A stretch of DNA of 40,500 bases from a virus. The notes below the pieces were generated by a model. That model did not search any database. It saw nothing but the letters and a program-made list of their open reading frames with translations, and was not told the origin of the DNA. A program made the position numbers and the translations under genes. Below, piece after piece: positions 2,806-40,450 of the stretch. The stretch lies in the UHGV virus genome UHGV-0090882, one strand, 5' to 3'. Position 1 is the first letter of the stretch. Each line of letters opens with the position of its first letter.

Positions 2806-3196
2806 CGTCTTTTCTCCCCGGAATTAACTCGCGTGGATTATCGGAACGGTGATAGAGCCATATACCAATACGCACAGCGACAATTGCTGACACGAATGCG
2901 CCTGCAGAGAAAACAATCCCTTTTTCAAAAGAGTCCTGCGTGATGGTAGGGATCAGGCTGGCTATGCCGATAAGAATTGATGCTGCTGGTTTGTAAAAGA
3001 GAAGGCCGCAAAGAAAGCTGAGCATCGACAGGAGCACCCGGCGACGGATGGGGTACTCTACTGCAGAGGTAACAAAAATTACCGCCCCAGCCAAAGCCCC
3101 TAAAGCAACCTCCGGAGGGACACCTGCAATAACCGCAGCAAGAGAACCAAAACTAAGCAACTGATTTAATTGCTCACTTGTTACTTGAGCAGACAT
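2792..3196 (-). CDS. Membrane protein, holin candidate
   Basis: Several predicted TM helices; first gene of the lysis cassette. Confidence 0.45.
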   Translation of the reverse strand: MSAQVTSEQLNQLLSFGSLAAVIAGVPPEVALGALAGAVIFVTSAVEYPIRRRVLLSMLSFLCGLLFYKPAASILIGIASLIPTITQDSFEKGIVFSAGAFVSAIVAVRIGIWLYHRSDNPRELIPGRKDDGNA

Positions 3197-3476
3197 ACTT
3201 TCTCCTGTTTACTATCTATAAGCCAGTCAATTATTGATGACTAACCCCGCATAGTAAACCATATATGAATCATTATTGTTCCATATCATATATCTCAATA
3301 AAAGTACTAATGATTTTACAGAACGAGCCAGCAGAGTGGGGGCAGTTGTACAGGAACCATAGACTTAATTTTGTATTTAATAATGCTATGGTGTAATAAA
3401 CCTGAACATGTATTTAAAATACGTACTGATTCATGATAGAATTCAAAGATAACTTTTCACAAACTCCGTTTTTGAT

Positions 3477-3504
3477 ACCCGCAAAATATTGCGGGCTTTT
3501 TTTT
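3477..3504 (+). terminator. Plus-strand rho-independent terminator abutting the tailspike stop
   Basis: Stem CCCGCAA / TTGCGGG followed by C and T8. On the minus strand the hairpin is not followed by a U-run, so it is not the tailspike terminator. Confidence 0.4.
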
Positions 3505-6622: not shown

Positions 6623-6725
6623 GTTAAATCTCCAGATAGTCGCAGCACCCGTTGCGCCGCATATCTGGTTATTCTATTACCTGGAAAACCACATATGGAT
6701 AGAAAGGCTGTAAATACGAATAGAT

Positions 6726-6742
6726 ATTACCTTTCAGGTAAT
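6726..6742. promoter_or_regulatory. Operator-like 17-bp palindrome ATTACCTTTCAGGTAAT (site 1)
   Basis: Perfect inverted repeat TTACC-N5-GGTAA upstream of the antirepressor promoter. Confidence 0.5.
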
Positions 6743-6778: not shown

Positions 6779-6798
6779 TACTGTATAAATATACAGTT
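6779..6798 (+). promoter_or_regulatory. LexA (SOS) box TACTGTATAAATATACAGTT
   Basis: Exact CTGT-N8-ACAG with AT-rich spacer, about 20 nt upstream of the start of 6818..7075. Confidence 0.7.
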
Positions 6799-6817: not shown

Positions 6818-7075
6818 ATGCAGCAGTATCACTATCCACTGGAAGACGGATTTACCGAAAGGATTCACACGCCGGGAGGCGTCAGGTCACTGGTGGAGGG
6901 ATCGCACTTGATGAAATTACTCCGGGATCTCGATAAGGATGGATTTAATGTCGATGGCCCACTTGCCGAACTGACTGCACTGATTAACTACGTCACCAGC
7001 TCACAGATGTCTATGCAGGATCTGCAAACACATCTCGACTATTGTGCCGAACAATTACGAAAACAAACCAGATAA
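6818..7075 (+). CDS. Small SOS-controlled protein, antirepressor candidate
   Basis: 85 aa from ATG 6818 (GGAG 9 nt upstream). Residues LMKLLRDLDKDGFNVDGPLAELTALINYV...DLQTHLDYCAEQ are paralogous to the C-terminus of the Bro-N protein at 7391..8101. The track start at 6695 lies upstream of the LexA box. Confidence 0.55.
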   Translation: MQQYHYPLEDGFTERIHTPGGVRSLVEGSHLMKLLRDLDKDGFNVDGPLAELTALINYVTSSQMSMQDLQTHLDYCAEQLRKQTR

Positions 7076-7105
7076 GGTTTGCAATTACCAAATGGAGTGC
7101 TTATA

Positions 7106-7122
7106 TTTACCTTTGCGGTAAA
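7106..7122. promoter_or_regulatory. Operator-like palindrome TTTACCTTTGCGGTAAA (site 2)
   Basis: Inverted repeat inside a larger inverted repeat (GGAGTGC ... GCACTCC). Confidence 0.45.
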
Positions 7123-7212
7123 TTTACATCGCACTCCTCTTGTGCCATAGTAATCGGGCACTGGCAAAATCCAGTGCCGGGATTGGCGTCCCGAGTTACT
7201 AAGTGGCGCATA

Positions 7213-7234
7213 CCACGCCAGACGTGGTTTTTTT
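7213..7234 (+). terminator. Putative weak rho-independent terminator
   Basis: Stem CCACG / CGTGG followed by T7. Confidence 0.35.
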
Positions 7235-7390
7235 ATGCGTTAAGCACAGCTATATCCGAATTATGGTGGGCTGGGCAGGGGTCCGAAAGGACGCCGGTAC
7301 CACTTAGGCCGGTACGCCAACCTTGTCCAGTTCACCACCAGTAATTGGCGTTGCGGTGGTGATTAAAATCACTAAGTGGAGATAACCACC

Positions 7391-8101
7391 ATGGCTAATG
7401 CTCAAACTGCCATCTTCAAATTTGAATCTGTTAACCCTATCCGTTCCATCATTATCGATGGCCAACCATGGTTTGTAGCCCAAGACGTTTGTAGTGCGCT
7501 GCGTATCCAAAACGTCACCCAAGCACTTGAAAAACTGGATGATGATGAAAGGTCTATGTTCAACATAGGGCATGAACATCGTGCAATTTTTGACAGCCGA
7601 GTAAAAGAGATCAACATCATCTCCGAGTCAGGCCTCTACACACTGATCCTCCGCTGCCGCGATGCGGTGACACCAGGCACTACCCCCTACCGCTTTCGTA
7701 AATGGGTTACAGGTGAGGTTCTTCCTCAGATCCGCCGCACCGGAAGTTACATTAAAAACTCGCTCCCGCAGGAAGAACGCATAAAGATGGTTGCCGACCA
7801 GGTAGCCAGCGCCACAGCATCAGCAGTGATGCAGGCAATGAAGGTAGAGAACAAAACCTACAGCGCCCCACTGAAGCCCGGCTACCGCAGCCTGATTCAT
7901 TCGCCGTCTGGTGTTCTCGGCCTGACGGAGAACTCACTGCTGATGAATCTGCTGAACCAGTTACAGGAAGACGGGCACGACGTATCGGGCGCGGCGGCGG
8001 AACTGACCACCATGTTCTGCTACATCGTCGGTGTGAGTAAATGCCTGCGTGATATCCAGACCCACGCGGAATACATCAACGACAAGGCAGGGGTCTTCTG
8101 A
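7391..8101 (+). CDS. Antirepressor, Bro-N domain protein
   Basis: N-terminus FKFESVNPIRSIIIDGQPWFVAQDVCSAL...ISESGLYTLILR is Bro-N-like; C-terminal domain paralogous to 6818..7075. ATG at 7391. Confidence 0.6.
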   Translation: MANAQTAIFKFESVNPIRSIIIDGQPWFVAQDVCSALRIQNVTQALEKLDDDERSMFNIGHEHRAIFDSRVKEINIISESGLYTLILRCRDAVTPGTTPYRFRKWVTGEVLPQIRRTGSYIKNSLPQEERIKMVADQVASATASAVMQAMKVENKTYSAPLKPGYRSLIHSPSGVLGLTENSLLMNLLNQLQEDGHDVSGAAAELTTMFCYIVGVSKCLRDIQTHAEYINDKAGVF

Positions 8102-8172: not shown

Positions 8173-8189
8173 ATTACCTTACGGGTGAT
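8173..8189. promoter_or_regulatory. Operator-like palindrome ATTACCTTACGGGTGAT (site 3)
   Basis: One mismatch to the palindrome; left 14 nt identical to site 11. Confidence 0.4.
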
Positions 8190-8317
8190 CCATAGCGATT
8201 AGGCACCGATACAGGAGGAGCCCACATGAGAAAATTTGACGAGTACGAAGGCGTTTAACATTCGGATAGTTTAATGACGGGGCCATTAGGCCCCGTTTTC
8301 ATGTCTGGAGACAGTTT

Positions 8318-8857
8318 GTGTTAAGTGAAGAAATGCAATTTGCCATGGCTGTGGCTCAAATCGTAAGTGCAGTCGCGGTTTCGCTTGGCTTGTTCATAGC
8401 TATCGCTACTATTATTTATAATGTAAATACAGCGAGAAAAGTACACACTTCAGTATTCCTTGGTGAAAGCAGGTTTGATGTAGATTATAAGAAAGGCCTA
8501 TCTACTATGCGCCGCATTCACGAATCGAACAAATCATTCCGCTCTTATATGTATCCAAGCAATGGGCAGGCTGATCTTACGGATGAAGAAAAGATAGAGA
8601 AGAGAGAAATAATTTACTGTCTAGGTTTCTACGAACGCATGGCTGTGAGCGTGAAGCGGAAAACTTATGATGAGACCATGATTAAGGAAGTATTTTACAG
8701 CTCCGTTGTAAATAACTATCAGATTGCGCTACCTCTTATACAAGCTATTAGAGAAAAAGAAAACATAAACACATATTTTAAAGAATATGAATGGTTGGCC
8801 ACACGATGGAAGGATTGTCCATTGAAGGATAAATCCCCGTGGTACAAGTTTTGGTAA
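8318..8857 (+). CDS. AT-rich moron: membrane-anchored protein of unknown function (candidate superinfection-exclusion/abortive-infection effector)
   Basis: Opposite strand to flanking virion genes; one N-terminal TM helix then a ~140-aa soluble domain; own terminator; visibly lower GC than neighbours. ATG at 8333 may be the true start. Confidence 0.6.
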   Translation: MLSEEMQFAMAVAQIVSAVAVSLGLFIAIATIIYNVNTARKVHTSVFLGESRFDVDYKKGLSTMRRIHESNKSFRSYMYPSNGQADLTDEEKIEKREIIYCLGFYERMAVSVKRKTYDETMIKEVFYSSVVNNYQIALPLIQAIREKENINTYFKEYEWLATRWKDCPLKDKSPWYKFW

Positions 8858-8943: not shown

Positions 8944-8955
8944 GTGACATGTCAC
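8944..8955. repeat. 12-bp perfect palindrome GTGACATGTCAC (copy 1 of 3)
   Basis: Overlaps the stop of 8952..9248 and abuts a terminator; identical copies at 26506 and 28771. Confidence 0.5.
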
Positions 8956-25422: not shown

Positions 25423-25490
25423 ATCAATGACTCCGTACGCAATCAAATTATTACCAATTTAACCACATATGATTTATTTATCGTAGATAG

Positions 25491-25519
25491 TTGACATTTA
25501 ACGCACAAATTATTACCTT
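25491..25519 (+). promoter_or_regulatory. Putative plus-strand promoter (TTGACA -35) driving the non-coding region and tRNA
   Basis: TTGACA at 25491-25496 followed by an AT-rich -10 region (AATTATTACC) that overlaps operator site 4; same layout as the early-left promoter at 34973. Confidence 0.4.
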
Positions 25520-25528
25520 TCAGGTAAC
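25512..25528. promoter_or_regulatory. Operator-like palindrome ATTACCTTTCAGGTAAC (site 4)
   Basis: Core identical to site 1. Confidence 0.5.
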
Positions 25529-25548
25529 CAAAGAGTTCATTCCGGTTA

Positions 25549-25849
25549 CTAACCTGACTGGCTTGTCGTTAAATTGAACAGGTGGAGTGAGCTTTTATTT
25601 TGAGCAGTACGGCGTATGGCACATGCGCCGATAGCGGTCTGGATACGTTTAAGGGGCACCCTACCTTGCTCGGGCAAACGAACCAGGTAGCCGGAATGTG
25701 CAAGTCGAGCGGTTTTATTCCGCGCACGGGGATTCACCATCCCGGCGATTCGGTGTGACGCCTCGGAAGAGACGAGGGTGCAACGATGAGAGCATTTATG
25801 GAGCCGCGACAAAGTGTGGCGCCTTAACAGGCTAAGTGCTCTCAGCGTT
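25549..25849 (+). ncRNA. Candidate non-coding RNA / structured leader upstream of the tRNA
   Basis: About 300 nt with no plus-strand ORF of 60 aa or more, between a promoter-like element and the tRNA; several local inverted repeats. Confidence 0.3.
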
Positions 25850-25926
25850 GTGGCATTAGCTCAGTTGGACAGAGCAACCGCCTTCTAAGCGGTTGGTCGC
25901 AGGTTCGAATCCTGCATGCCACGCCA
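25850..25926 (+). tRNA. tRNA-Arg (anticodon UCU), phage-encoded
   Basis: Full cloverleaf readable by hand: acceptor GTGGCAT/ATGCCAC, D-stem GCTC/GAGC, anticodon stem ACCGC/GCGGT with loop CTTCTAA, T-arm GCAGG-TTCGAAT-CCTGC, 3' CCA encoded. Confidence 0.9.
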
Positions 25927-25969
25927 GAATCACGCCTAAGGACCGTGATGCCAGAAGTTCCAGGGGCTT

Positions 25970-26011
25970 GGCGGTGATGGTTTCCCTTGAAGGACTATCA
26001 CCGCCCTTTTT
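25970..26011 (+). terminator. Hairpin plus T-run downstream of the tRNA
   Basis: Stem GGCGGTGAT / ATCACCGCC (large loop) followed by CTTTTT. Confidence 0.45.
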
Positions 26012-26089
26012 ACAGCAGGACGCCATTGCGATGACTTCATGCTGTAAACCAGTACAGCCACGGAAGGCATAACTCATTGCTTCCAGTTC

Positions 26090-26113
26090 GCCCGGTTCGC
26101 CGGGCATTTTTTT
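26090..26113 (+). terminator. Rho-independent terminator
   Basis: Stem GCCCGG-ttcg-CCGGGC followed by A and T7; lies 17 nt before the RBS of the 26130 gene. Confidence 0.55.
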
Positions 26114-26129
26114 AAGGTGAGATTAGACT

Positions 26130-26501
26130 ATGAGTGACAAAGACATTGAATCTGAAATTCAGGCTAAAGGTTTAGCCGCGCCGCGCGTTACGCCAGACCA
26201 TATCGAGAGCATTATTGCTCAGGAGGCATATTTCACAGCAGAAGATGGTGTCTTTGGCGTAGCCATAAAAGCGAAACATACTGGCGGAGAGGTAAACTAC
26301 CAGCCGCACGAATCACTTTCTCTGCTGACGTTCTGCGTTCTGGTGCTGCGCAACGGCTTCACCGTCACCGGAGAGAGCGCCTGTGCAAGCCCGGAAAACT
26401 TTGATGCGGAAATTGGTCGGAAGATTGCCCGGCAGAATGCTGTAAACAAAATCTGGATGCTTGAAGGTTACTTGCTGAAGCAGAAGTTAAGCGAGCAATA
26501 A
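26130..26501 (+). CDS. Gp49-like phage protein (N4 gp49 / Sf6 gene 66 family), function unknown
   Basis: 123 aa; C-terminal block LRNGFTVTGESACASPENFDAEIGRKIARQNAVNKIW recalled as that family. RBS AGGTGA. Confidence 0.5.
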   Translation: MSDKDIESEIQAKGLAAPRVTPDHIESIIAQEAYFTAEDGVFGVAIKAKHTGGEVNYQPHESLSLLTFCVLVLRNGFTVTGESACASPENFDAEIGRKIARQNAVNKIWMLEGYLLKQKLSEQ

Positions 26502-26505
26502 CACC

Positions 26506-26517
26506 GTGACATGTCAC
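26506..26517. repeat. 12-bp palindrome GTGACATGTCAC (copy 2 of 3)
   Basis: Four nt after the stop of 26130..26501, immediately before a terminator hairpin. Confidence 0.5.
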
Positions 26518-26549
26518 AAACAGCCAGCCGATGAGCTGGCTTTGTTTTA
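26518..26549 (+). terminator. Rho-independent terminator after the gp49-like gene
   Basis: Stem AGCCAGC / GCTGGCT (loop cgatga) followed by TTGTTTT. Confidence 0.5.
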
Positions 26550-28067: not shown

Positions 28068-28660
28068 TGATTACCATCCTGACGTTCTTTGAGTCGCTTC
28101 CTGGCTGCTGCTATGCGATCAGCAATTGTCACATTCACATTAACATCCAGGCGTTCTTTGAATGCGTTGACGTCGACGTGCTTACCAATCAGTTCGAGGT
28201 TCTTCACCTTGTCAGGCCATTTAATTTTTTTGAGGATTGTCTCTATCGAATCCTCGTTCATGTTCATGATGGTCGATGACAGATCAAAGCCGCTAAGCGT
28301 AGTGCGCCAGATTTTCGGCCACTCGCGGATTGGCTTAAGGCTCCCATCGTCGTTGAGGATGTCTATCACGTCCATCTGGTCGATCTCCACCAGGCGCATG
28401 AGAACGTAATCAGCACTGACGCGCATTCGTTTGTTGCGCTCCTCCATCAACTCGGCAATCCGTTTTTGAATGCGTTCATCGCGCATCATGACACTGGCTT
28501 TAACTGCCGCTGTATTTGGGGAGAATCCTGCATTAATCGCTGCCTGAGTCTGGTTTTCAGGCGTTTTGATGTATGACTGGCAATAAGCCTCCTGCATTGC
28601 TGTTAGTGGCTTAAATTGCGTTGATTTGCGTTTATAGGCTTTAGGTTCAGCAGGCATCAT
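28064..28660 (-). CDS. terS: Terminase small subunit
   Basis: N-terminal LTAMQEAYCQSYIKTPENQTQAAINAGFS resembles small-subunit HTH regions. Start trimmed to ATG 28660 because the track's N-terminal extension reads through operator sites 5-6. Confidence 0.65.
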   Translation of the reverse strand: MMPAEPKAYKRKSTQFKPLTAMQEAYCQSYIKTPENQTQAAINAGFSPNTAAVKASVMMRDERIQKRIAELMEERNKRMRVSADYVLMRLVEIDQMDVIDILNDDGSLKPIREWPKIWRTTLSGFDLSSTIMNMNEDSIETILKKIKWPDKVKNLELIGKHVDVNAFKERLDVNVNVTIADRIAAARKRLKERQDGNQ

Positions 28661-28675
28661 AACCACCGTGGTAAT
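28659..28675. promoter_or_regulatory. Operator-like site ATAACCACCGTGGTAAT (site 5)
   Basis: One mismatch in the left arm; overlaps the terS start. Confidence 0.4.
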
Positions 28676-28676
28676 A

Positions 28677-28693
28677 GTTACCGTTGTGGTAAT
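28677..28693. promoter_or_regulatory. Operator-like palindrome GTTACCGTTGTGGTAAT (site 6)
   Basis: Tandem with site 5, centres 18 bp apart. Confidence 0.45.
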
Positions 28694-28710
28694 AGTATCA
28701 TGCAAAATAA

Positions 28711-28730
28711 AGCCGCCATAGTTGGCGGCA
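28711..28730 (-). terminator. Minus-strand rho-independent terminator between the nin-like block and terS
   Basis: Stem GCCGCC / GGCGGC with an A-rich run on the plus-strand 5' side (U-run in the minus transcript). Confidence 0.45.
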
Positions 28731-28770: not shown

Positions 28771-28782
28771 GTGACATGTCAC
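28771..28782. repeat. 12-bp palindrome GTGACATGTCAC (copy 3 of 3)
   Basis: Overlaps the stop of 28779..29120 at the same register as copy 1. Confidence 0.5.
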
Positions 28783-29120
28783 ACTATTAATTTCGTTTCA
28801 TGCCAGCCTTTAGTCACCCAGCATTGCGAGTCACCATCACACGGGCATGAATTCACAGGAACTCTCTCGCCGCACTTACCGCAACGTTTTCTGCTGATCG
28901 ATTTTATACGCCCGTGCACGCGTGCATCATCCTGGCGGATCAGTAACGCTATATACTCACCAAATTCGTAAGGCGCACGCCCGGGGCGACGCGTGGCACA
29001 GTTACGCTCCAGCATTTCAATTTCCTGAGCATCAAGCACAATTTCCAGCTTACGCACACCAGATGCAGCTTGTCTGGCTCTCTGAGCGGCTTTGCGCTCT
29101 GCTGCTGATTTAGCCATCAA
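28779..29120 (-). CDS. Zinc-ribbon protein immediately upstream of terminase (late-regulator candidate)
   Basis: 113 aa, basic N-terminus, C-terminal CGKCG...CPCDG...C cysteine cluster. Confidence 0.4.
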   Translation of the reverse strand: MMAKSAAERKAAQRARQAASGVRKLEIVLDAQEIEMLERNCATRRPGRAPYEFGEYIALLIRQDDARVHGRIKSISRKRCGKCGERVPVNSCPCDGDSQCWVTKGWHETKLIV

Positions 29121-31829: not shown

Positions 31830-31893
31830 GATTTACCCCTGAGGTAATTAAAAACCACATAAGACACGAAATCAATAGATCTAAGAATATTTT

Positions 31894-31910
31894 GTTACCT
31901 ATTGGGTAAC
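31894..31910. promoter_or_regulatory. Operator-like palindrome GTTACCTATTGGGTAAC (site 7)
   Basis: Perfect inverted repeat between the P-like gene and the nin-like block. Confidence 0.5.
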
Positions 31911-31946
31911 TATTGAGGCGTAAAAAAATGCGCTATCGCGCTGGTA

Positions 31947-32747: not shown

Positions 32748-33544
32748 GCTTCAGGGCTGTTCCAGTGCGGAACGTTGTTATCAGGTAATGTTGATTGCTT
32801 CTGTCTGCTAATCTGCAGCCGCCTTGCCAGCTTCTGCTCCCACTGTGCCTGATGGTATGCCTTACCCTCAGCCATCCAGTAAATTCTGAACTCTGCAAGT
32901 TCCTGTGCCGTTGGCAGACTGTCCAGGTAGATCCCCTGCAATGAGCTTTTCCGAAGAAAATCATCTGATGGTTGCCATTGTTCATGCATGACAAATTTGC
33001 CTAATTGCCCTGGCCCACCAGGAGGAACAAAGTTATTCATCACGGCGTTGTTTGCGCCGGGGTCATGAGGCACAGAATCCCCGGTTTTTGTCCTGCTCTC
33101 CCTCTCTTGGTTAAATGACTGGTTATATGACTGGTTCTGGATCCCGTTTTTGGGATCATTCAACATCCCGTTTTTGGGATCATTCAACATCCCGTTTTTG
33201 GGTATATTCCCGTTTTCGGTAACATTACCGTTTTCGGGTTCATTACCCCCTTCCCGGTTGCCTTTAATGTTCCCGTTTTTGGTTATATTAAGAGAGAAAA
33301 CCCGCACTCTTTTCGTCGCTCCCTTTCTCTCTCCGGTATCTGAAATAAGCCCCATTTTCATGAGCGATATAAGCCCGGCCTGCACGGTTTTTTTATTCAG
33401 GCAAGTGTCTTTAACGAGGCGTTCTATGCTGGGGTAGCAGAGGTTATATTCATCGGCTCTGTCAGCCATCGAGAGCAGTATGAGCTTTAATGACGAGCTA
33501 CCTGGATCTGTCTCCCAGGCCCAATCTGTTGCATGTCTGCTCAT
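32729..33544 (-). CDS. Replication initiator O-like protein with iterons inside the gene
   Basis: N-terminal winged-helix-like region; the central coding sequence consists of the iteron repeats and encodes repetitive NG/KNG peptides. Confidence 0.7.
   Translation of the reverse strand: MSRHATDWAWETDPGSSSLKLILLSMADRADEYNLCYPSIERLVKDTCLNKKTVQAGLISLMKMGLISDTGERKGATKRVRVFSLNITKNGNIKGNREGGNEPENGNVTENGNIPKNGMLNDPKNGMLNDPKNGIQNQSYNQSFNQERESRTKTGDSVPHDPGANNAVMNNFVPPGGPGQLGKFVMHEQWQPSDDFLRKSSLQGIYLDSLPTAQELAEFRIYWMAEGKAYHQAQWEQKLARRLQISRQKQSTLPDNNVPHWNSPEAWEDFL
33141..33285. repeat. Origin iterons: about six copies of (A)TCCCGTTTTTGGGA-like inverted-repeat units
   Basis: Direct repeats at about 33143, 33167, 33191, 33209, 33227 and 33272; unit is the complement-equivalent of the lambda ori iteron TCCCTCAAAACGAGGGA. 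Confidence 0.7.
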
Positions 33545-33559
33545 GATTAATCTCCGCTA

Positions 33560-33760
33560 TCAGCTTGAATGTTGTGGGGTGGAATTAATCATGATCTGCT
33601 TAATCTCTGCCCTGATGCGACGGTTTGATTCCATGGTGCACTCAACACAGTGTCCGTTGTAAACCCAGCGTTCACTGTCATGTCCGTGCTTACATGGTTT
33701 TCCGGTGTAGTAGCGTTTAAGTCCGCGCTTTGCGGCATCAATACGTGTAATGATTTCCAT
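33560..33760 (-). CDS. Small Cys/His-rich (zinc-binding-like) protein between cro-like gene and replication genes
   Basis: ATG at 33760; 66 aa with ...CKHGH...NGHCVEC...; the longer track start adds a hydrophobic extension and is a TTG. Confidence 0.4.
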   Translation of the reverse strand: MEIITRIDAAKRGLKRYYTGKPCKHGHDSERWVYNGHCVECTMESNRRIRAEIKQIMINSTPQHSS

Positions 33761-33810
33761 GGTAAGCCCTGTTATTAGTATTGGGATTACGGTTATTTTG
33801 TGCTGACACA

Positions 33811-33840
33811 AAAAAAAAGATCAACCAGATTTGGTTTTTT
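33811..33840. terminator. Bidirectional intrinsic terminator between cro-like gene and replication genes
   Basis: A8 - AACCAGATTTGGTT hairpin - T6; a U-run follows the hairpin in either orientation. Confidence 0.45.
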
Positions 33841-33857
33841 ATTACCTTTGAGGTACG
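33841..33857. promoter_or_regulatory. Operator-like site ATTACCTTTGAGGTACG (site 8)
   Basis: Left arm and spacer resemble sites 1 and 4; right arm degenerate. Confidence 0.4.
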
Positions 33858-33911
33858 AATAGATATGAAAAGACCGCCGGGTGGCGGTCTACAGAGGGTT
33901 GTGGCTGGATA

Positions 33912-34142
33912 TCATGAGTAGAAGAAGTATGCCAGTTCTGCTTTTGAGCGCAGCCATTGTCTTGTTTTACAGGCTTTAAAAAGACCATTCATCAATACTT
34001 TACCTGGCATTTTGCGCTTACCTGTTAAGTGAGTCTGGATATAGTGACTCGTCGTTCCGGCTTCCTGTGCGAAGGCTTCACGCTCATCCGGAGTAAGTGC
34101 AAGCCAGTGCTTTTTGAAATCGAAATGTCCGTTATCGCTCAT
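33912..34142 (-). CDS. Cro-like small HTH regulator (YdaS/Cro type)
   Basis: 76 aa, divergent from the repressor gene, HTH-like segment, first gene of the replication-direction operon. Confidence 0.5.
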   Translation of the reverse strand: MSDNGHFDFKKHWLALTPDEREAFAQEAGTTSHYIQTHLTGKRKMPGKVLMNGLFKACKTRQWLRSKAELAYFFYS

Positions 34143-34209
34143 AGCTATTGCCTGATATTTATTTCAGATAATAAATATTCACCCATAAGGTAACAAAAAT
34201 CAAGGATAG

Positions 34210-34226
34210 TTACCTATGGGGTGCAT
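34210..34226. promoter_or_regulatory. Operator-like site GTTACCTATGGGGTGCA (site 9)
   Basis: Left 10 nt as in site 7; degenerate right arm; in the divergent cro/repressor interval. Confidence 0.35.
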
Positions 34227-34243
34227 TTACCTGTTGGGTAATA
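34227..34243. promoter_or_regulatory. Operator-like palindrome TTTACCTGTTGGGTAAT (site 10)
   Basis: Abuts site 9, giving a tandem pair in the divergent promoter region. Confidence 0.45.
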
Positions 34244-34296
34244 TTGCTTTAAATTGAATCATCTACTGATTCATATATGAGGCGATTTTCCAGAAA

Positions 34297-34881
34297 ATGA
34301 AAAGTATCCAGGACGTCCGCAGGCAAAATCTCAACGACTTGATCGACCGTGAATTCAATGGTGTTCAGACGCGGATGGCAGAAAAACTTGGAACTCAGGC
34401 AAATCTGGTAAACCGCTGGGCTCTTGGCAAGAAGGTTATCGGCGACCAGGTTGCGCGAAAAATTGAAGCTGCCGCCAATAAACCCCGTAACTGGCTTGAT
34501 ATCGATCGCTCGCTTTCTCAGGAAGGTTTTCAGCCTGTCGGCCCAAGCGACATTGGTCAGCTAGCGGCTCACAACCTGGAACGCTGGATGAGCGAAAGCC
34601 GCGACCTTTCAACACAGGGAAAACTTCACCGCGCATCCGGCGTCGCCCAGGTGACAATCAGCCGCCTGTTAAACAATGAGGTCAGCGTTTCCATTTCCAC
34701 CCTGGAGAATGTTGCATCTGCATTCGGGCGTCACGGATATGAACTACTGATTCACCCGCACGATCCTGCAACTATCAACTATGACCGCTCGCGCTACGCA
34801 TTGTTACCTGAAACCGAGAAAGCAAAGATCGAAAGTTACATTGAATTTGTCATCAACCAGAACGAAAAAAACAAACAATAA
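34297..34881 (+). CDS. Prophage repressor candidate: two HTH domains, no autocleavage (S24 peptidase) domain
   Basis: 194 aa; HTH-like segments near residues 20-60 and 110-150; no G-(D/S)-SM-P / Lys peptidase motif; own terminator downstream. Confidence 0.55.
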   Translation: MKSIQDVRRQNLNDLIDREFNGVQTRMAEKLGTQANLVNRWALGKKVIGDQVARKIEAAANKPRNWLDIDRSLSQEGFQPVGPSDIGQLAAHNLERWMSESRDLSTQGKLHRASGVAQVTISRLLNNEVSVSISTLENVASAFGRHGYELLIHPHDPATINYDRSRYALLPETEKAKIESYIEFVINQNEKNKQ

Positions 34882-34901
34882 AATCATATTTTTCAGTAAG
34901 T

Positions 34902-34926
34902 AAGCCGCCATTTGGCGGCTTTTTTA
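34902..34926 (+). terminator. Rho-independent terminator of the repressor gene
   Basis: Stem AAGCCGCC-attt-GGCGGCTT followed by T-run. Confidence 0.6.
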
Positions 34927-34937
34927 TTGTCTATTTA

Positions 34938-34954
34938 ATTACCTTACGGGTAAT
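34938..34954. promoter_or_regulatory. Operator-like palindrome ATTACCTTACGGGTAAT (site 11)
   Basis: Perfect; extends to a 19-bp palindrome AATTACC...GGTAATT; about 19 bp upstream of the -35. Confidence 0.5.
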
Positions 34955-34972
34955 TTTTTTAACTCATATCTA

Positions 34973-35001
34973 TTGACACCAAACCAAATACGCATAATTA
35001 T
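34973..35001 (+). promoter_or_regulatory. Early-left (pL-like) promoter
   Basis: TTGACA at 34973-34978 with -10 candidates in CATAATTAT 14-17 nt downstream; flanked by sites 11 and 12. Confidence 0.5.
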
Positions 35002-35016
35002 TACCTCAACGGTAAC
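35000..35016. promoter_or_regulatory. Operator-like palindrome ATTACCTCAACGGTAAC (site 12)
   Basis: Overlaps the -10/+1 of the early-left promoter; an extra GGTAAC half-site follows at 35024-35029. Confidence 0.5.
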
Positions 35017-35034
35017 AAGCCGAGGTAACAAGTT

Positions 35035-35187
35035 ATGCAGTGGAAAATCATCAACGGTTGGTACTGCGTTACTGCATGCGGATTCATGAGCTGGAAGTTC
35101 CGCACCTTACAGGAAGGCATTAAGTGGGCTTTCGTCAGCAAAGAAGCTCGCGATGTGGCCAACGATAACGAGATATGGGAGGGCTGA
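35035..35187 (+). CDS. Small ORF (50 aa), first gene of early-left operon; not in ORF track
   Basis: ATG 35035 to TGA 35185-35187, found by reading the sequence; stop adjoins the next ATG (TGATAATG). Confidence 0.3.
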   Translation: MQWKIINGWYCVTACGFMSWKFRTLQEGIKWAFVSKEARDVANDNEIWEG

Positions 35188-35189
35188 TA

Positions 35190-35489
35190 ATGAACGTTAA
35201 TCAGCAGAAAAATCTTCAAAAAATCATGCTGGCATTCGACAAGGACTACCGCCTGTCAGAACAGCTATATGACCGACAAGTTGAACTGATCGATAGCATC
35301 CGGCTTCATCAACTGGCCTCAACTTTTGACGCTGTAACAGGCAAAGGAGTTCGCCAGGAAGTACTGGAGGCTGCTAAAGACAGCCCTGAGTTCGAAGAAC
35401 TGATGGATGCCTACCGGCGAGAGGCAATGGCAATTATCGCCCGCTGGGATCTGGCGGATCGGATTGATGGGCAGAGGGAAGCGGCATGA
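35190..35489 (+). CDS. Hypothetical early protein
   Basis: ATG at 35190 (MNVNQQ...), 99 aa; 4-nt overlap with the nuclease gene. Confidence 0.4.
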   Translation: MNVNQQKNLQKIMLAFDKDYRLSEQLYDRQVELIDSIRLHQLASTFDAVTGKGVRQEVLEAAKDSPEFEELMDAYRREAMAIIARWDLADRIDGQREAA

Positions 35490-39193: not shown

Positions 39194-40450
39194 TTATTTA
39201 TTACTGTCTTCCATCCACTTCTCAAACTTCGACGGGGAGAACGGAATCAGATCCGTATGCTCCCCGTTAATCCAGGAATCAATCATATCGGCCCACTGCT
39301 GCAACATGTAGGCGCGCTGTCTGGCGTATTCCGCTTTGTTATATACGGCGCGCACACCTTTCTGCTCATGTGCCAGAGCCTTTTCAATCCAGTCTGAAGG
39401 ATAACCAGCCTCATGCAACAACGTACTGGCTGTACGGCGCATATCATGTACAGTGAAGTCCTGAATATGCTCACCATCTTCATTTATTATTTTCACCGTT
39501 CTGTCGATCAGAGAGTTCAGCGCGGCATTAGATAATGGCTTCCGGAAGTTGTAACGACCAGGAACCAGATATTCACTTCCACCAGCGCACATCTGCAACC
39601 CGACCAATATATCCTGTGCCTGTTTAGGCAGGTAAATAACGTGCGCCCGGCTTCCCTTCATGCGGTCTGAAGGAATTGTCCATGTCCATTTTTTAAAATC
39701 TATTTCGTCCCACGTTGCATTGGTGAATTCGCCTTTACGAACCATAGTGATAAGCACCAGCTTTAAAGCCATTTTCATAGTGCCCATAGCACCAATGGCA
39801 TCCAGCGTGCGGAAGAACAGGCCAATTTCTTCTGGTGTCAGTGTTCGCTCTCGTGGTTTAAATATGGCGATAGACGAAGGTTTAATGTCAGCCGCAGGAT
39901 TAAACAAACCATGACCACGGTCATTGGCGTGACGGTATACGCTGCTGATGATCTCCCTGGCCTGCACTGCTGTTGCCCGACCACCGCGTTCGACAATCCG
40001 GTCACACAAATCACGAACCATCGATGTGGTAATTTCAGCCATCATTTTGTTGCCAAGAACAGGAAGTATGTCACGGTCGATCACCGCCTGCTTCATTGCG
40101 CGGGTACTGTCAGCCAGGATGACGTGTTTCATATAACTGTCGGTATGTACCGCAAACGTCTCAGCACCACGAATCTTTTTGATACCGTCACGTTTAGCCG
40201 CAGCCGGTGACTGGCCTGCTTTAAGCAGCTTCTTTGCAGCAATCAGTTCTTCTCGCGCTTCTGCCAGACTGATACCGTCACGCCCATACTGCCCGATTAC
40301 CAGTGTTTCGCGGCGACCGTTGATACGGTAGTCATAGCGAAACGAGACCGTGCCTGACGTAAGCACAGCTACATACAGCCCGTCACGATCGGAGACCTTG
40401 TACAGTTTGTCCTGCGGCTTGAGGTTTTTTAATTTTGTATCGGTAAGCAC
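39194..40450 (-). CDS. int: Tyrosine integrase (P4-type, N-terminal DUF4102-like arm-binding domain)
   Basis: 418 aa; C-terminal catalytic region with ...HDMRRTAST...; terminal gene of the prophage, convergent with the phosphatase gene. Confidence 0.85.
   Translation of the reverse strand: MLTDTKLKNLKPQDKLYKVSDRDGLYVAVLTSGTVSFRYDYRINGRRETLVIGQYGRDGISLAEAREELIAAKKLLKAGQSPAAAKRDGIKKIRGAETFAVHTDSYMKHVILADSTRAMKQAVIDRDILPVLGNKMMAEITTSMVRDLCDRIVERGGRATAVQAREIISSVYRHANDRGHGLFNPAADIKPSSIAIFKPRERTLTPEEIGLFFRTLDAIGAMGTMKMALKLVLITMVRKGEFTNATWDEIDFKKWTWTIPSDRMKGSRAHVIYLPKQAQDILVGLQMCAGGSEYLVPGRYNFRKPLSNAALNSLIDRTVKIINEDGEHIQDFTVHDMRRTASTLLHEAGYPSDWIEKALAHEQKGVRAVYNKAEYARQRAYMLQQWADMIDSWINGEHTDLIPFSPSKFEKWMEDSNK

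Follow-up and report, generated by a model that had tools for sequence, protein, structure and literature searches.

The closest described system is the Rep–Ant switch of the Uetakevirus SPC32H (PDB 5D50 and 5D4Z; Kim & Ryu 2013, Kim et al. 2016). PMC9638917 outlines how a Rep tetramer of SPC32H occupies palindromic sites and is taken apart by Ant, itself a tetramer. SOS-induced Ant is reported to be common among Salmonella prophages (PMC7380047), and in phage ZX5, overexpression of the repressor is reported to have abolished free phage and to have lowered holin/endolysin mRNA by more than 99.9% (PMC9782041). The window, that is, the whole 40,500-nucleotide stretch of virus DNA analyzed here (UHGV-0090882), is, judged from its sequence, a phiV10/epsilon15-type (Uetakevirus) prophage. 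The DNA of its immunity region is 98% identical to that of Escherichia coli phage phiV10 (NC_007804), whose sequence is virtually the same and whose record annotates the same two terminators; the Rep of ZX5 is identical to the one encoded here. Set against the published outline of the SPC32H switch, the homology of Rep extends over the whole protein, and Ant is approximately 90% identical. As in SPC32H, ant adjoins a tail-fibre gene behind a LexA box, and the genome layout and the operator half-sites are the same. By contrast, SPC32H Rep is only 42–43% identical to Rep of the window, with the divergence mostly in the C-terminal domain and the linker, and the second, Bro-N antirepressor with an IsrK/C4 leader found here is absent from the SPC32H annotation. 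The immunity switch is thus of an already known kind, ordinary and largely described before. We take the segment 33841–35016 to be, in all likelihood, the region that decides between lysis and lysogeny in a phiV10-type Uetakevirus prophage, with an SPC32H-type Rep/Ant switch in which Rep would silence the genome unit by unit; for both parts together, we give a probability of roughly 0.7.

The operator motif is TTACC-N5-GGTAA (15 bp), and 13 sites match it in the window at no more than one mismatch. All 13 are intergenic, whereas only 7.7% of the window is intergenic (p ~3e-15), and they stand at most transcription-unit boundaries. Exact copies number nine in 40.5 kb against approximately 0.04 expected (4^-10 x 40.5 kb), and at up to two mismatches 39 sites were observed compared with 11.4 ± 3.5 in shuffled sequences. 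In each of the five genomes compared, TTACC ranks first among the 5-N5-5 palindromes, with 9–11 exact copies, whereas any other such palindrome has two at most. The sites occupy homologous junctions with the same layout in four related phages, and their spacing is fixed in the five phages (62 bp for flanking pairs and 17–18 bp for tandem pairs). Promoter-like hexamers also stand at a fixed geometry relative to the operators: at PL, at terS, and at the post-replication and c4-ant promoters, the −10 hexamer and the operator share one T, which ends the former and begins the latter. Seven of these sites are marked in the RefSeq record of epsilon15 (NC_004775) as 'protein_bind: repressor'; in this record, the sequence ATTACC-N5-GGTAAT carries the label 'repressor' at OL, terS, ant/tail fibre, the post-replication junction, and the portal operon, while the OR sites and the second site of each pair are left unmarked. 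Terminator passage is addressed in neither the phiV10 nor the epsilon15 record.

The repressor gene (34297–34881, plus strand) encodes a protein of 194 amino acids that is 100% identical to phiV10 p40. A phmmer search against PDB identified SPC32H Rep (5D50_A) as a full-length homologue (E = 4e-42, residues 1–190), and PDB 5D4Z, which covers residues 92–198 of SPC32H Rep, was also matched (E = 4e-20). Pfam placed HTH_3 at residues 106–147 (E = 1.2e-9) and a weaker HTH-type match, YdaS_toxin, at residues 21–61, and no Peptidase_S24 domain was found in Rep with Pfam, NCBIfam, or PHROGs. These matches bear out the first-pass annotation, which had described a non-cleavable repressor with two HTH motifs, and suggest that Rep does not undergo RecA-stimulated self-cleavage. 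The N-terminal HTH is probably the DNA-binding domain, which would read TTACC-N5-GGTAA, and the C-terminal HTH-like domain would serve for oligomerization and Ant binding. Within the N-terminal domain, the segment NLVNRW is invariant in five Reps although these are only 43% identical, and the same operator half-site is kept with all five Reps, down to 42% identity. The gene was said to have its own terminator, and it is indeed followed on the plus strand by an intrinsic terminator at 34902–34921 with a T-run to 34927. This hairpin has an 8-bp stem with six G-C pairs and a fold of −16 kcal/mol (z = −4.6; 0 of 200 shuffles fold as well) next to its U-tract, and the phiV10 record annotates the same terminator after the repressor gene.

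Beyond this terminator, the proposed order of operator, TTGACA promoter, and operator was recovered in full. Two exact palindromes, OL2 (TTACCTTACGGGTAA, 34939–34953) and OL1 (TTACCTCAACGGTAA, 35001–35015), bracket a PL-like promoter, TTGACA-17-AATTAT (34973–35001, plus strand; 10/12 match). OL1 begins with the T that ends the −10 hexamer and would therefore cover the PL transcription start; OL2 is centred at approximately −62 from that start, and the 62-bp centre-to-centre distance between the two operators is conserved in five phages. The promoter reads into small ORFs and then genes for a DUF3799 exonuclease, RecT, AlpA, a PerC-like protein, a methylase, and a phosphatase. On the other side of the repressor gene, a PR-like promoter, TTGTTA-17-TATTAT (34168–34196, minus strand; 9/12 match), is predicted for a cro-like gene (33912–34142, minus strand) and is conserved in epsilon15 and Tyrion. 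The cro-like product has 76 amino acids and matches phrog_35 'transcriptional repressor' (E = 5.6e-13), with no match in a PDB sequence search even at E ≤ 10. Three OR sites lie here: one with a single mismatch overlapping the PR −35 and spacer (34179–34193), one with two mismatches (34210–34224), and one exact (34227–34241). The cluster (34179–34241) has the same 17/48-bp layout in the relatives.

Only 21 nt after the stop codon of the cro-like gene stands a hairpin terminator (33871–33890, minus strand), the equivalent of lambda tR1, with an 8-bp stem and six G-C pairs. It folds at −15 kcal/mol (z = −4.5), but its tail is only UUUUCAUAU, a short U-tract of four U. The hairpin is kept in five phages, whereas of these only the phage described here and Tyrion have a U-tract, which epsilon15, SPC32H, and BUCT711 lack. 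The phiV10 record annotates a terminator at the equivalent position, which the first-pass annotation had missed. Just downstream of the hairpin is a degenerate operator with one mismatch (TTACCTTTGAGGTAC, 33842–33856), whose GGTAAT half does not vary among the five phages, all of which also retain the ..ACC half. It is followed by a promoter-like block, TTGATC-18-CAAAAT (33795–33824, minus strand), that contains GATC and in which GGTTGATCTTTTT and AAAAT are invariant in five phages with spacers of 16–18. This block may be the promoter of the replication unit, whose first gene encodes a 66-amino-acid Cys/His protein (33560–33760, minus strand), although it matches at only 8/12 positions. The operator is centred near −61 from this proposed promoter, which is not a classical repressing position.

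Comparable arrangements were found at other unit boundaries. The post-replication boundary (31833–31935, minus strand) comprises a short terminator (31916–31935, minus strand; 4-bp stem, −7.4 kcal/mol, z = −1.1), an operator (31895–31909), a promoter-like TTGATT-17-TTTAAT called from sequence (31875–31847, minus strand), and, at a 62-bp spacing from the first, a second operator (31833–31847) before the DUF1064 gene, which comes next. The terS boundary (28660–28729, minus strand) consists of a terminator (28712–28729, minus strand; −14.5 kcal/mol), a predicted extended −10, TGaTACTAT (28700–28692, minus strand), conserved as TGnTACTAT in epsilon15 and Tyrion, and tandem operators (28678–28692 and 28660–28674) ahead of the terS ATG at 28649. 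Further operators lie between the portal operon (minus strand) and the tRNA-Arg/gp49_66 moron (plus strand) at 25513–25527 and between the divergent tail-fibre gene and ant at 6727–6741; the latter is exact, and its epsilon15 equivalent is annotated as repressor-binding. Upstream of the lysis genes (3196–3503), where epsilon15 has an operator, none was recognizable in this window. The late units (portal, tail fibre, and lysis) have no −35 elements and share a different motif, CATATGTGGTT-N7-TAATAA, and they may therefore depend on an activator, in which case Rep by itself does not account for when they are expressed.

The antirepressor genes lie in the ant/tail-fibre region. A perfect LexA (SOS) box of the form CTGT-N8-ACAG (CTGTATAAATATACAG, 6781–6796, plus strand) is situated 22 bp before the ATG of a gene for a small antirepressor, Ant (6818–7075, plus strand; 85 amino acids), and ant is predicted to be under SOS control through this box. 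Ant aligns over residues 2–84 with the SPC32H anti-repressor in PDB 5D50_E (E = 4e-47, ~90% identity). The presence of this cognate, presumably LexA-controlled Ant 27 kb away, which the first-pass annotation had not noticed, would explain how Rep can be non-cleavable. A second antirepressor unit follows (7079–8101, plus strand), with a predicted promoter, TTGCAA-17-TATATT, an operator (7107–7121), an RNA leader, and a Bro-N Ant gene (7391–8101, plus strand; phrog_130 Ant) whose product is 42% identical at its C-terminus to the small Ant. In the leader, Rfam identified c4-a1b1/isrK (7145–7234, plus strand) and C4 RNA (7259–7342, plus strand; 66 bits, gathering 45); isrK (7158–7234) scored 67 bits (gathering 50), and c4-a1b1 scored 44.3 bits, just under its gathering score of 46.7. 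The unit has the build of a P1/P7 immI (c4-ant) module, namely, a C4 RNA with an upstream a1/b1 target region and then an antirepressor gene.

The following mechanism would account for this organization. The repressor gene would be transcribed on the plus strand and stop at its own terminator, and Rep would shut PR through the three overlapping operators and PL through the two bracketing operators 62 bp apart, a distance that fits a tetramer clamping both, possibly with looping of the DNA. The rest of the genome would consist of terminator-delimited units, most having their own promoter with an abutting or flanking operator, namely, the replication unit, the post-replication unit, terS, the portal operon, the tail-fibre/ant region, and c4-ant. 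Since Rep would silence these units directly, no N- or Q-type antiterminator would be needed. Upon DNA damage, LexA would leave the box upstream of the 85-amino-acid Ant, and Ant would bind Rep and release it from all operators at once; the second, Bro-N Ant would be gated by the IsrK/C4 leader. The sequences show the homologies and the sites, with their positions and their conservation; promoters other than PL are predictions from sequence, and we infer promoter activity, occupancy of each site by Rep, and DNA looping.

The first-pass annotation had offered a choice between an unrecognized antitermination factor and a separate operator-controlled promoter for each unit. It had seen no N-like or Q-like antiterminator, and our searches agree: no early gene matched an N or Q family in Pfam, PHROGs, or NCBIfam, and the first genes of the PL operon, where an N-like protein would be placed, matched no N family but belong to phrog_898 and phrog_856, two families of unknown function. 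Neither a nut nor a put equivalent was found. BoxA-like matches were at chance level (14 compared with 16.4 expected, and 0 at 33–36 kb), and no put-type structured RNA was matched in the immunity region by Rfam at E ≤ 1, the Rfam matches in the window being tRNA, isrK, and C4 only. With 5' leaders of just 20–27 nt or so, the PL and PR transcripts have no room for a put-like RNA. Taken with the operators at unit boundaries, the fixed geometry of the hexamers, and the layout conserved in four relatives, these results favour unit-specific promoters under the control of Rep.

An alternative, which we regard as somewhat unlikely, is that the terminators are leaky, so that transcription from PR reads through them often enough to be of use and the downstream operators serve as roadblocks in the lysogen, like stoperators, rather than as promoter operators. 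The hairpin after the cro-like gene has its four U here but no U-tract in epsilon15, SPC32H, and BUCT711, the terminator at 31916 is weak, and the operator at 33842 sits 15 nt past the hairpin rather than at a classical promoter-blocking position, all of which would suit this view. However, promoter-like hexamers with 16–18-bp spacers are conserved after each terminator, and the −10 hexamers that abut operators at four junctions indicate that initiation, not elongation, is what is controlled. Two of the terminators, those at 34902 and 28712, are also strong, and the operators are symmetric, unlike the orientation-dependent stoperators.

We consider it unlikely that an unrecognized factor controls terminator passage. 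The best candidate for such a factor is the 112-amino-acid regulator-like protein encoded by the last gene before terS (28779–29117, minus strand; phiV10 p55/epsilon15 gp49 family), acting at a 12-bp palindrome, GTGACATGTCAC (GTGAC-NN-GTCAC), at three operon ends; it could either let transcription pass by antitermination into the late genes and terS or act as a roadblock that reinforces termination, and it would be compatible with unit-specific promoters. The protein is probably a DNA-binding regulator, and PHROGs labels its family (phrog_536) 'transcriptional regulator'. The palindrome occurs in three exact copies in the window (8944, 26506, and 28771) compared with approximately 0.002 expected, at the same three positions in epsilon15 and Tyrion, and with copies also in SPC32H and BUCT711; at every copy, the order is stop codon, palindrome, and intrinsic terminator. 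The pair of gene and palindrome is also found in unrelated backbones (ZF40 gp22, Chlobot, N15 gp46, and Klebsiella 020009), the site being GTGACTGGTCAC in N15 gp46 and Klebsiella 020009. In addition, the gene lies directly upstream of terS with a terminator between them, a position like that of Q and tR' in lambda. This Q-like order of gene, terminator, and late genes comes without homology: the protein had no match in Pfam and, searched as a family by sequence against PDB, none even at E ≤ 10, it shows no similarity to any antiterminator, and its AF2 model is of low confidence (pLDDT 63) and unreliable. A search for relatives of the family returned only relatives of 96–100% identity, too close for a study of co-variation, and matches in phage records were used for the comparison across backbones. 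Moreover, a conserved extended −10 promoter for terS itself lies beyond the terminator, the copy at 26506 would act on a moron transcript antisense to terL, and homologues in Yersinia and Aeromonas have no palindrome nearby. The palindrome is absent from the terminators at 33871 and 34902 in the immunity region and at 31916, and this factor therefore cannot explain the junction after the cro-like gene. Alternatively, the palindromes could delimit modules at boundaries used for recombination. We also considered GTGACA of the palindrome as a −35 for a late promoter of the Q type and rejected this, because the spacing fits the terS copy only and not the other two. The first-pass annotation had also put forward the 66-amino-acid protein (33560–33760) as an antitermination factor; its confident model is that of a small Zn module, also found joined to homing endonucleases, which resembles no solved antiterminator, and a PDB sequence search with it was empty at E ≤ 10.

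The protein–palindrome pair is common to Uetakeviruses, N15-like phages, ZF40, and others. We put forward, very tentatively and as a rather improbable reading, that the p55/gp49-family protein and GTGAC-NN-GTCAC form an undescribed regulatory module at operon ends, between stop codon and terminator; a termination/antitermination device dependent on the DNA site, or a late switch, is one possibility. If true, this would make the earlier candidate at 28779..29120 right in spirit.

It is highly improbable that 33811–33840 is a genuine bidirectional intrinsic terminator, for although a short inverted repeat there (AACCA/TGGTT) lies between runs of A9 and T6, the stem has 5 bp with two G-C pairs and a fold indistinguishable from shuffles (lytic strand, −4.0 kcal/mol, z = −0.8, equalled by 39 of 200 shuffles; plus strand, −5.8 kcal/mol, z = −1.75), the lytic-strand U-run is offset from the stem by 4 nt (GAUC), the relatives have no compensatory changes in the stem but keep TTGATC and AAAAT invariant, and no terminator is annotated at this place in the record of phiV10 or in that of epsilon15. 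A terminator scan did not find it, and the weak hairpin lies within the conserved promoter-like block; the strong hairpin between the cro-like and replication genes is the one at 33871–33890. An IHF site was also considered for this stretch, and its consensus was not matched on inspection. The first-pass annotation therefore stands in its observation of a repressor, a repressor terminator, an operator–promoter–operator array, and no N or Q, as well as in its interpretation of an immunity region with a two-domain HTH repressor that has no protease domain, a terminator of its own, and an operator-flanked PL-like promoter; what falls in both is the terminator at 33811–33840.

The switch mainly confirms antirepressor-driven lysogeny, with repressor sites genome-wide, in the phiV10/epsilon15/SPC32H group. 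It should help to annotate the numerous E. coli and Salmonella prophages of this kind, which are predictable as SOS-inducible despite a non-cleavable repressor.

Compared with lambda, the order is the same on both sides: the repressor, its own terminator, OL/PL, and recombination genes on one, and OR/PR, cro, a terminator, and replication genes, here with a homologue of lambda P, on the other. Unlike lambda, the window has no N, nut, Q, or qut, its repressor is without a RecA-cleavable domain, operators are repeated at downstream units, and its integrase gene and PL operon are transcribed towards each other. Phages P1 and P7 likewise have one repressor, C1, with many operators scattered over the genome and, at immI, an antirepressor behind a C4 antisense RNA with a1/b1 targets. 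However, Rep is unrelated to P1/P7 C1, no icd was identified here, and the P1/P7 operators are asymmetric 17-mers, whereas those of the window are symmetric 15-mers. The gp71 stoperators of mycobacteriophage L5 are also repressor sites that occur genome-wide, beyond the main switch, but they lack symmetry, are located within transcribed regions, and stop elongation in a single orientation; the operators described here are symmetric, intergenic, and tied to promoter hexamers. Finally, the LexA-controlled antirepressors of the Gifsy/Fels prophages and Tum of phage 186 (Lemire et al. 2011, PMC3121763) offer a further likeness, a non-cleavable repressor inactivated by a small SOS-induced protein; the protein families differ from those of the window, for which structural homologues of both partners have been solved.

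The region at 33500-35200 was 98% identical to Escherichia phage phiV10 by sequence comparison and 97 to 98.5% identical to approximately 15 other E. coli Uetakeviruses, and its repressor protein is 100% identical in phiV10, ZX5, and others. The window begins with host DNA and lysis genes, extends to an integrase gene at its right (39194-40450), and is an entire phiV10-type prophage. The host DNA at the left end (1-1300) carries two lipoprotein-like ORFs at 47-1123, which places the prophage junction near 1140-1400; phages of this type are reported to integrate at the 3' end of guaA (PMC9782041). Within the DnaT/HTH_36 replication-initiator gene, iteron-like tandem repeats at 33108-33247 (a 24-bp unit, ATCCCGTTTTTGGGATCATTCAAC, repeated 2.6 times, plus 18-bp and 12-bp arrays) are probably the origin of replication.

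The first-pass annotation had described a two-HTH, non-cleavable repressor, a description that our searches fit. Pfam placed an HTH_3 domain at residues 106-147 of the 194-aa repressor (34297-34881) and, less strongly, an HTH-type match at 21-61, and found no protease domain in it. Rep of Salmonella phage SPC32H (PDB 5D50_A), a Uetakevirus with the gene order seen in the window, aligned with the repressor over its full length (E = 4e-42), and the C-terminal half also matched PDB 5D4Z. The "second HTH" corresponds to the C-terminal oligomerization and antirepressor (Ant)-binding domain in the SPC32H Rep structure. According to work citing the SPC32H study, Rep is a tetramer on palindromic DNA, each site is occupied by DNA-binding domains from two different dimers, and a tetrameric antirepressor dismantles Rep (PMC9638917). 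In ZX5, whose Rep is identical, repressor overexpression abolished free phage and lysis-gene mRNA (PMC9782041). The proposed terminator of the repressor gene is also genuine: an 8-bp stem with six G-C pairs followed by a T-run (34902-34921; −16 kcal/mol, z = −4.6).

The palindrome TTACC-N5-GGTAA occurs in the window as nine exact copies and four with one mismatch, and all 13 are intergenic, although intergenic DNA makes up only 7.7% of the window on our own ORF map. OR holds two of them (34179 and 34227) and a two-mismatch copy at 34210, and OL another two (34939 and 35001). One follows the cro terminator (33842), a pair (31895 and 31833) flanks a promoter-like site after the replication genes, and a second pair (28678 and 28660) separates a terminator from terS. 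Single sites separate the portal operon from a tRNA/gp49_66 moron (25513) and the tail-fibre gene from ant (6727), and the remaining two are at the c4-ant promoter (7107) and ahead of a tiny ORF (8174). The stretch 8174-8300 (+) contains, in order, this operator-like site (one mismatch), a 10-codon ORF, and a terminator; it precedes the gene of a 179-aa protein (8318-8857; phrog_2284) and may be a leader or an attenuator. In epsilon15, Tyrion, SPC32H, and Klebsiella phage BUCT711, no other 5-N5-5 palindrome comes close in frequency to that formed by the TTACC half-site, which occupies homologous junctions there, and the epsilon15 RefSeq record marks seven of the sites as "protein_bind: repressor, lysogeny." Although only 42 to 45% identical, the Reps all keep the segment NLVNRW of the N-terminal HTH unchanged, which fits the half-site common to these phages.

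The spacing of these sites is also conserved. Flanking operator pairs, at OL and at the junction after the replication genes, are 62 bp apart from centre to centre in the five phages, with a single exception of 63 bp, and tandem pairs are spaced by 17 to 18 bp. The operator-promoter-operator arrangement claimed for OL holds, the exact palindromes at 34939 and 35001 bracketing TTGACA-17-AATTAT. At PL and at the predicted post-replication (TTGATT-17-TTTAAT), c4-ant (TTGCAA-17-TATATT), and terS promoters (an extended −10, TGaTACTAT, shared with epsilon15 and Tyrion), the final T of the −10 hexamer doubles as the operator's first T. This repeated geometry is the strongest argument for our inference that initiation at these sites is operator-controlled. 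Between the two explanations offered previously, an unrecognized antitermination factor or an operator-controlled promoter for each unit, the latter is favoured on sequence and comparative grounds only. The late units share a different motif: CATAT(G/A)TGGTT-N7-TAATAA/TAATAG/TATGAT precedes the portal, tail-fibre, and lysis operons of all five phages (here with CATAT(G/A)TGGTT at 25461-25471, 6687-6697, and 3257-3267, all (−)), which hints at an activator-dependent promoter class; a related copy lies at 31853-31863 (−).

The junction after the cro-like gene had been assigned a bidirectional terminator at 33811-33840, and this assignment failed. Its 5-bp stem has two G-C pairs, shuffled sequences equalled its folding energies (−4.0 kcal/mol for the lytic strand, −5.8 for the + strand), and it was absent from the terminator-scan output. 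A strong hairpin lies 30 bp to the right (33871-33890; −15 kcal/mol, z = −4.5), where the phiV10 record annotates a terminator. It is followed by a degenerate operator (33842-33856) and then by a conserved block with GGTAAT, CCA.AT..GGTTGATCTTTTT, and AAAAT invariant in five phages. This block, which covers 33811-33840, can be read as TTGATC (−35), a 16- to 18-bp spacer, and cAAAAT (−10); on that reading it is a candidate weak promoter driving the gene of the 66-aa protein along with the replication genes. The invariant TTGATC (33819-33824) includes a GATC (Dam) site that all five phages share. The hairpin is conserved across the phages (−11 to −16 kcal/mol); a U-tract accompanies it in this phage and in Tyrion but not in epsilon15, SPC32H, or BUCT711, so some passive read-through is also plausible.

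No early gene matched an N, Q, or other antiterminator family in Pfam, PHROGs, or NCBIfam, in line with the first-pass annotation, which had noted no N- or Q-like antiterminator. BoxA-like strings occurred at chance level and none within the early region, put-like RNAs would not fit into the short PL and PR leaders, and Rfam reported nothing further than tRNA, isrK, and C4 matches. Of the two proteins proposed as candidates, the 66-aa Cys/His protein (33560-33760, (−)) gave a confident model (pLDDT 91) predicting a zinc knuckle and a long helix, with no solved counterpart found. The same small zinc module occurs joined to homing endonucleases in viral proteins; its partners in viral structure predictions are GIY-YIG, HNH, and endonuclease VII proteins. 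The 112-aa protein (28779-29117) is labelled "transcriptional regulator" in PHROGs; Pfam and PDB searches with it matched nothing, and its structure model was poor. Its gene ends at a 12-bp palindrome, GTGACATGTCAC (28771-28782), with other exact copies at 26506-26517 and 8944-8955. In all three cases a stop codon precedes the palindrome and an intrinsic terminator follows it, and the three positions are kept in epsilon15 and Tyrion. The pairing of a p55/gp49-family gene with the palindrome recurs in the unrelated ZF40, Chlobot, and N15-like phages, the last with the form GTGACTGGTCAC. This suggests that the palindrome is a cognate binding site and has some function at the ends of operons. It has no bearing on the immunity-region terminators, which lack it. 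Further copies lie outside the window in sequences designated L002 (2142, 19517, and 39612), L006 (2785), L007 (2767), and L092 (1789). The moron at 25491-26541 (+), between terL and the portal operon, comprises TTGACA with an operator, tRNA-Arg(tct) (25850-25926), a second CTGT-N8-ACAG (26042), a gp49_66-family ORF (26130-26501), the palindrome, and a terminator.

Two adjacent antirepressor genes lie at the left of the prophage. The small one (6818-7075; 85 aa), the predicted partner of the repressor, is homologous to SPC32H Ant (5D50_E; E = 4e-47, approximately 90% identity), and a perfect predicted SOS box, CTGTATAAATATACAG, lies 22 bp upstream (6781-6796); SOS-induced antirepressors are described as the usual induction route of Salmonella prophages in another paper citing the SPC32H work (PMC7380047). 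Directly after it is a Bro-N Ant (7391-8101; phrog_130), whose C-terminal domain is homologous to the small Ant (last 80 residues; 42% identity over 74 aa) and whose overexpression in ZX5 reduced lysogeny (PMC9782041). A promoter-like element with an operator at its start precedes this gene, and its leader (7145-7342, (+)) matched c4-a1b1, isrK (67 bits), and C4 antisense RNA (66 bits), the latter two above the Rfam gathering thresholds. This arrangement resembles that of P1/P7 immI, and on sequence the leader is a predicted immI-like RNA gate within a Uetakevirus. The immunity region itself, correctly recognized in the first-pass annotation, is a known one, given its essentially phiV10 sequence, the solved homologues of its repressor and antirepressor, and the scattered repressor sites annotated in epsilon15.
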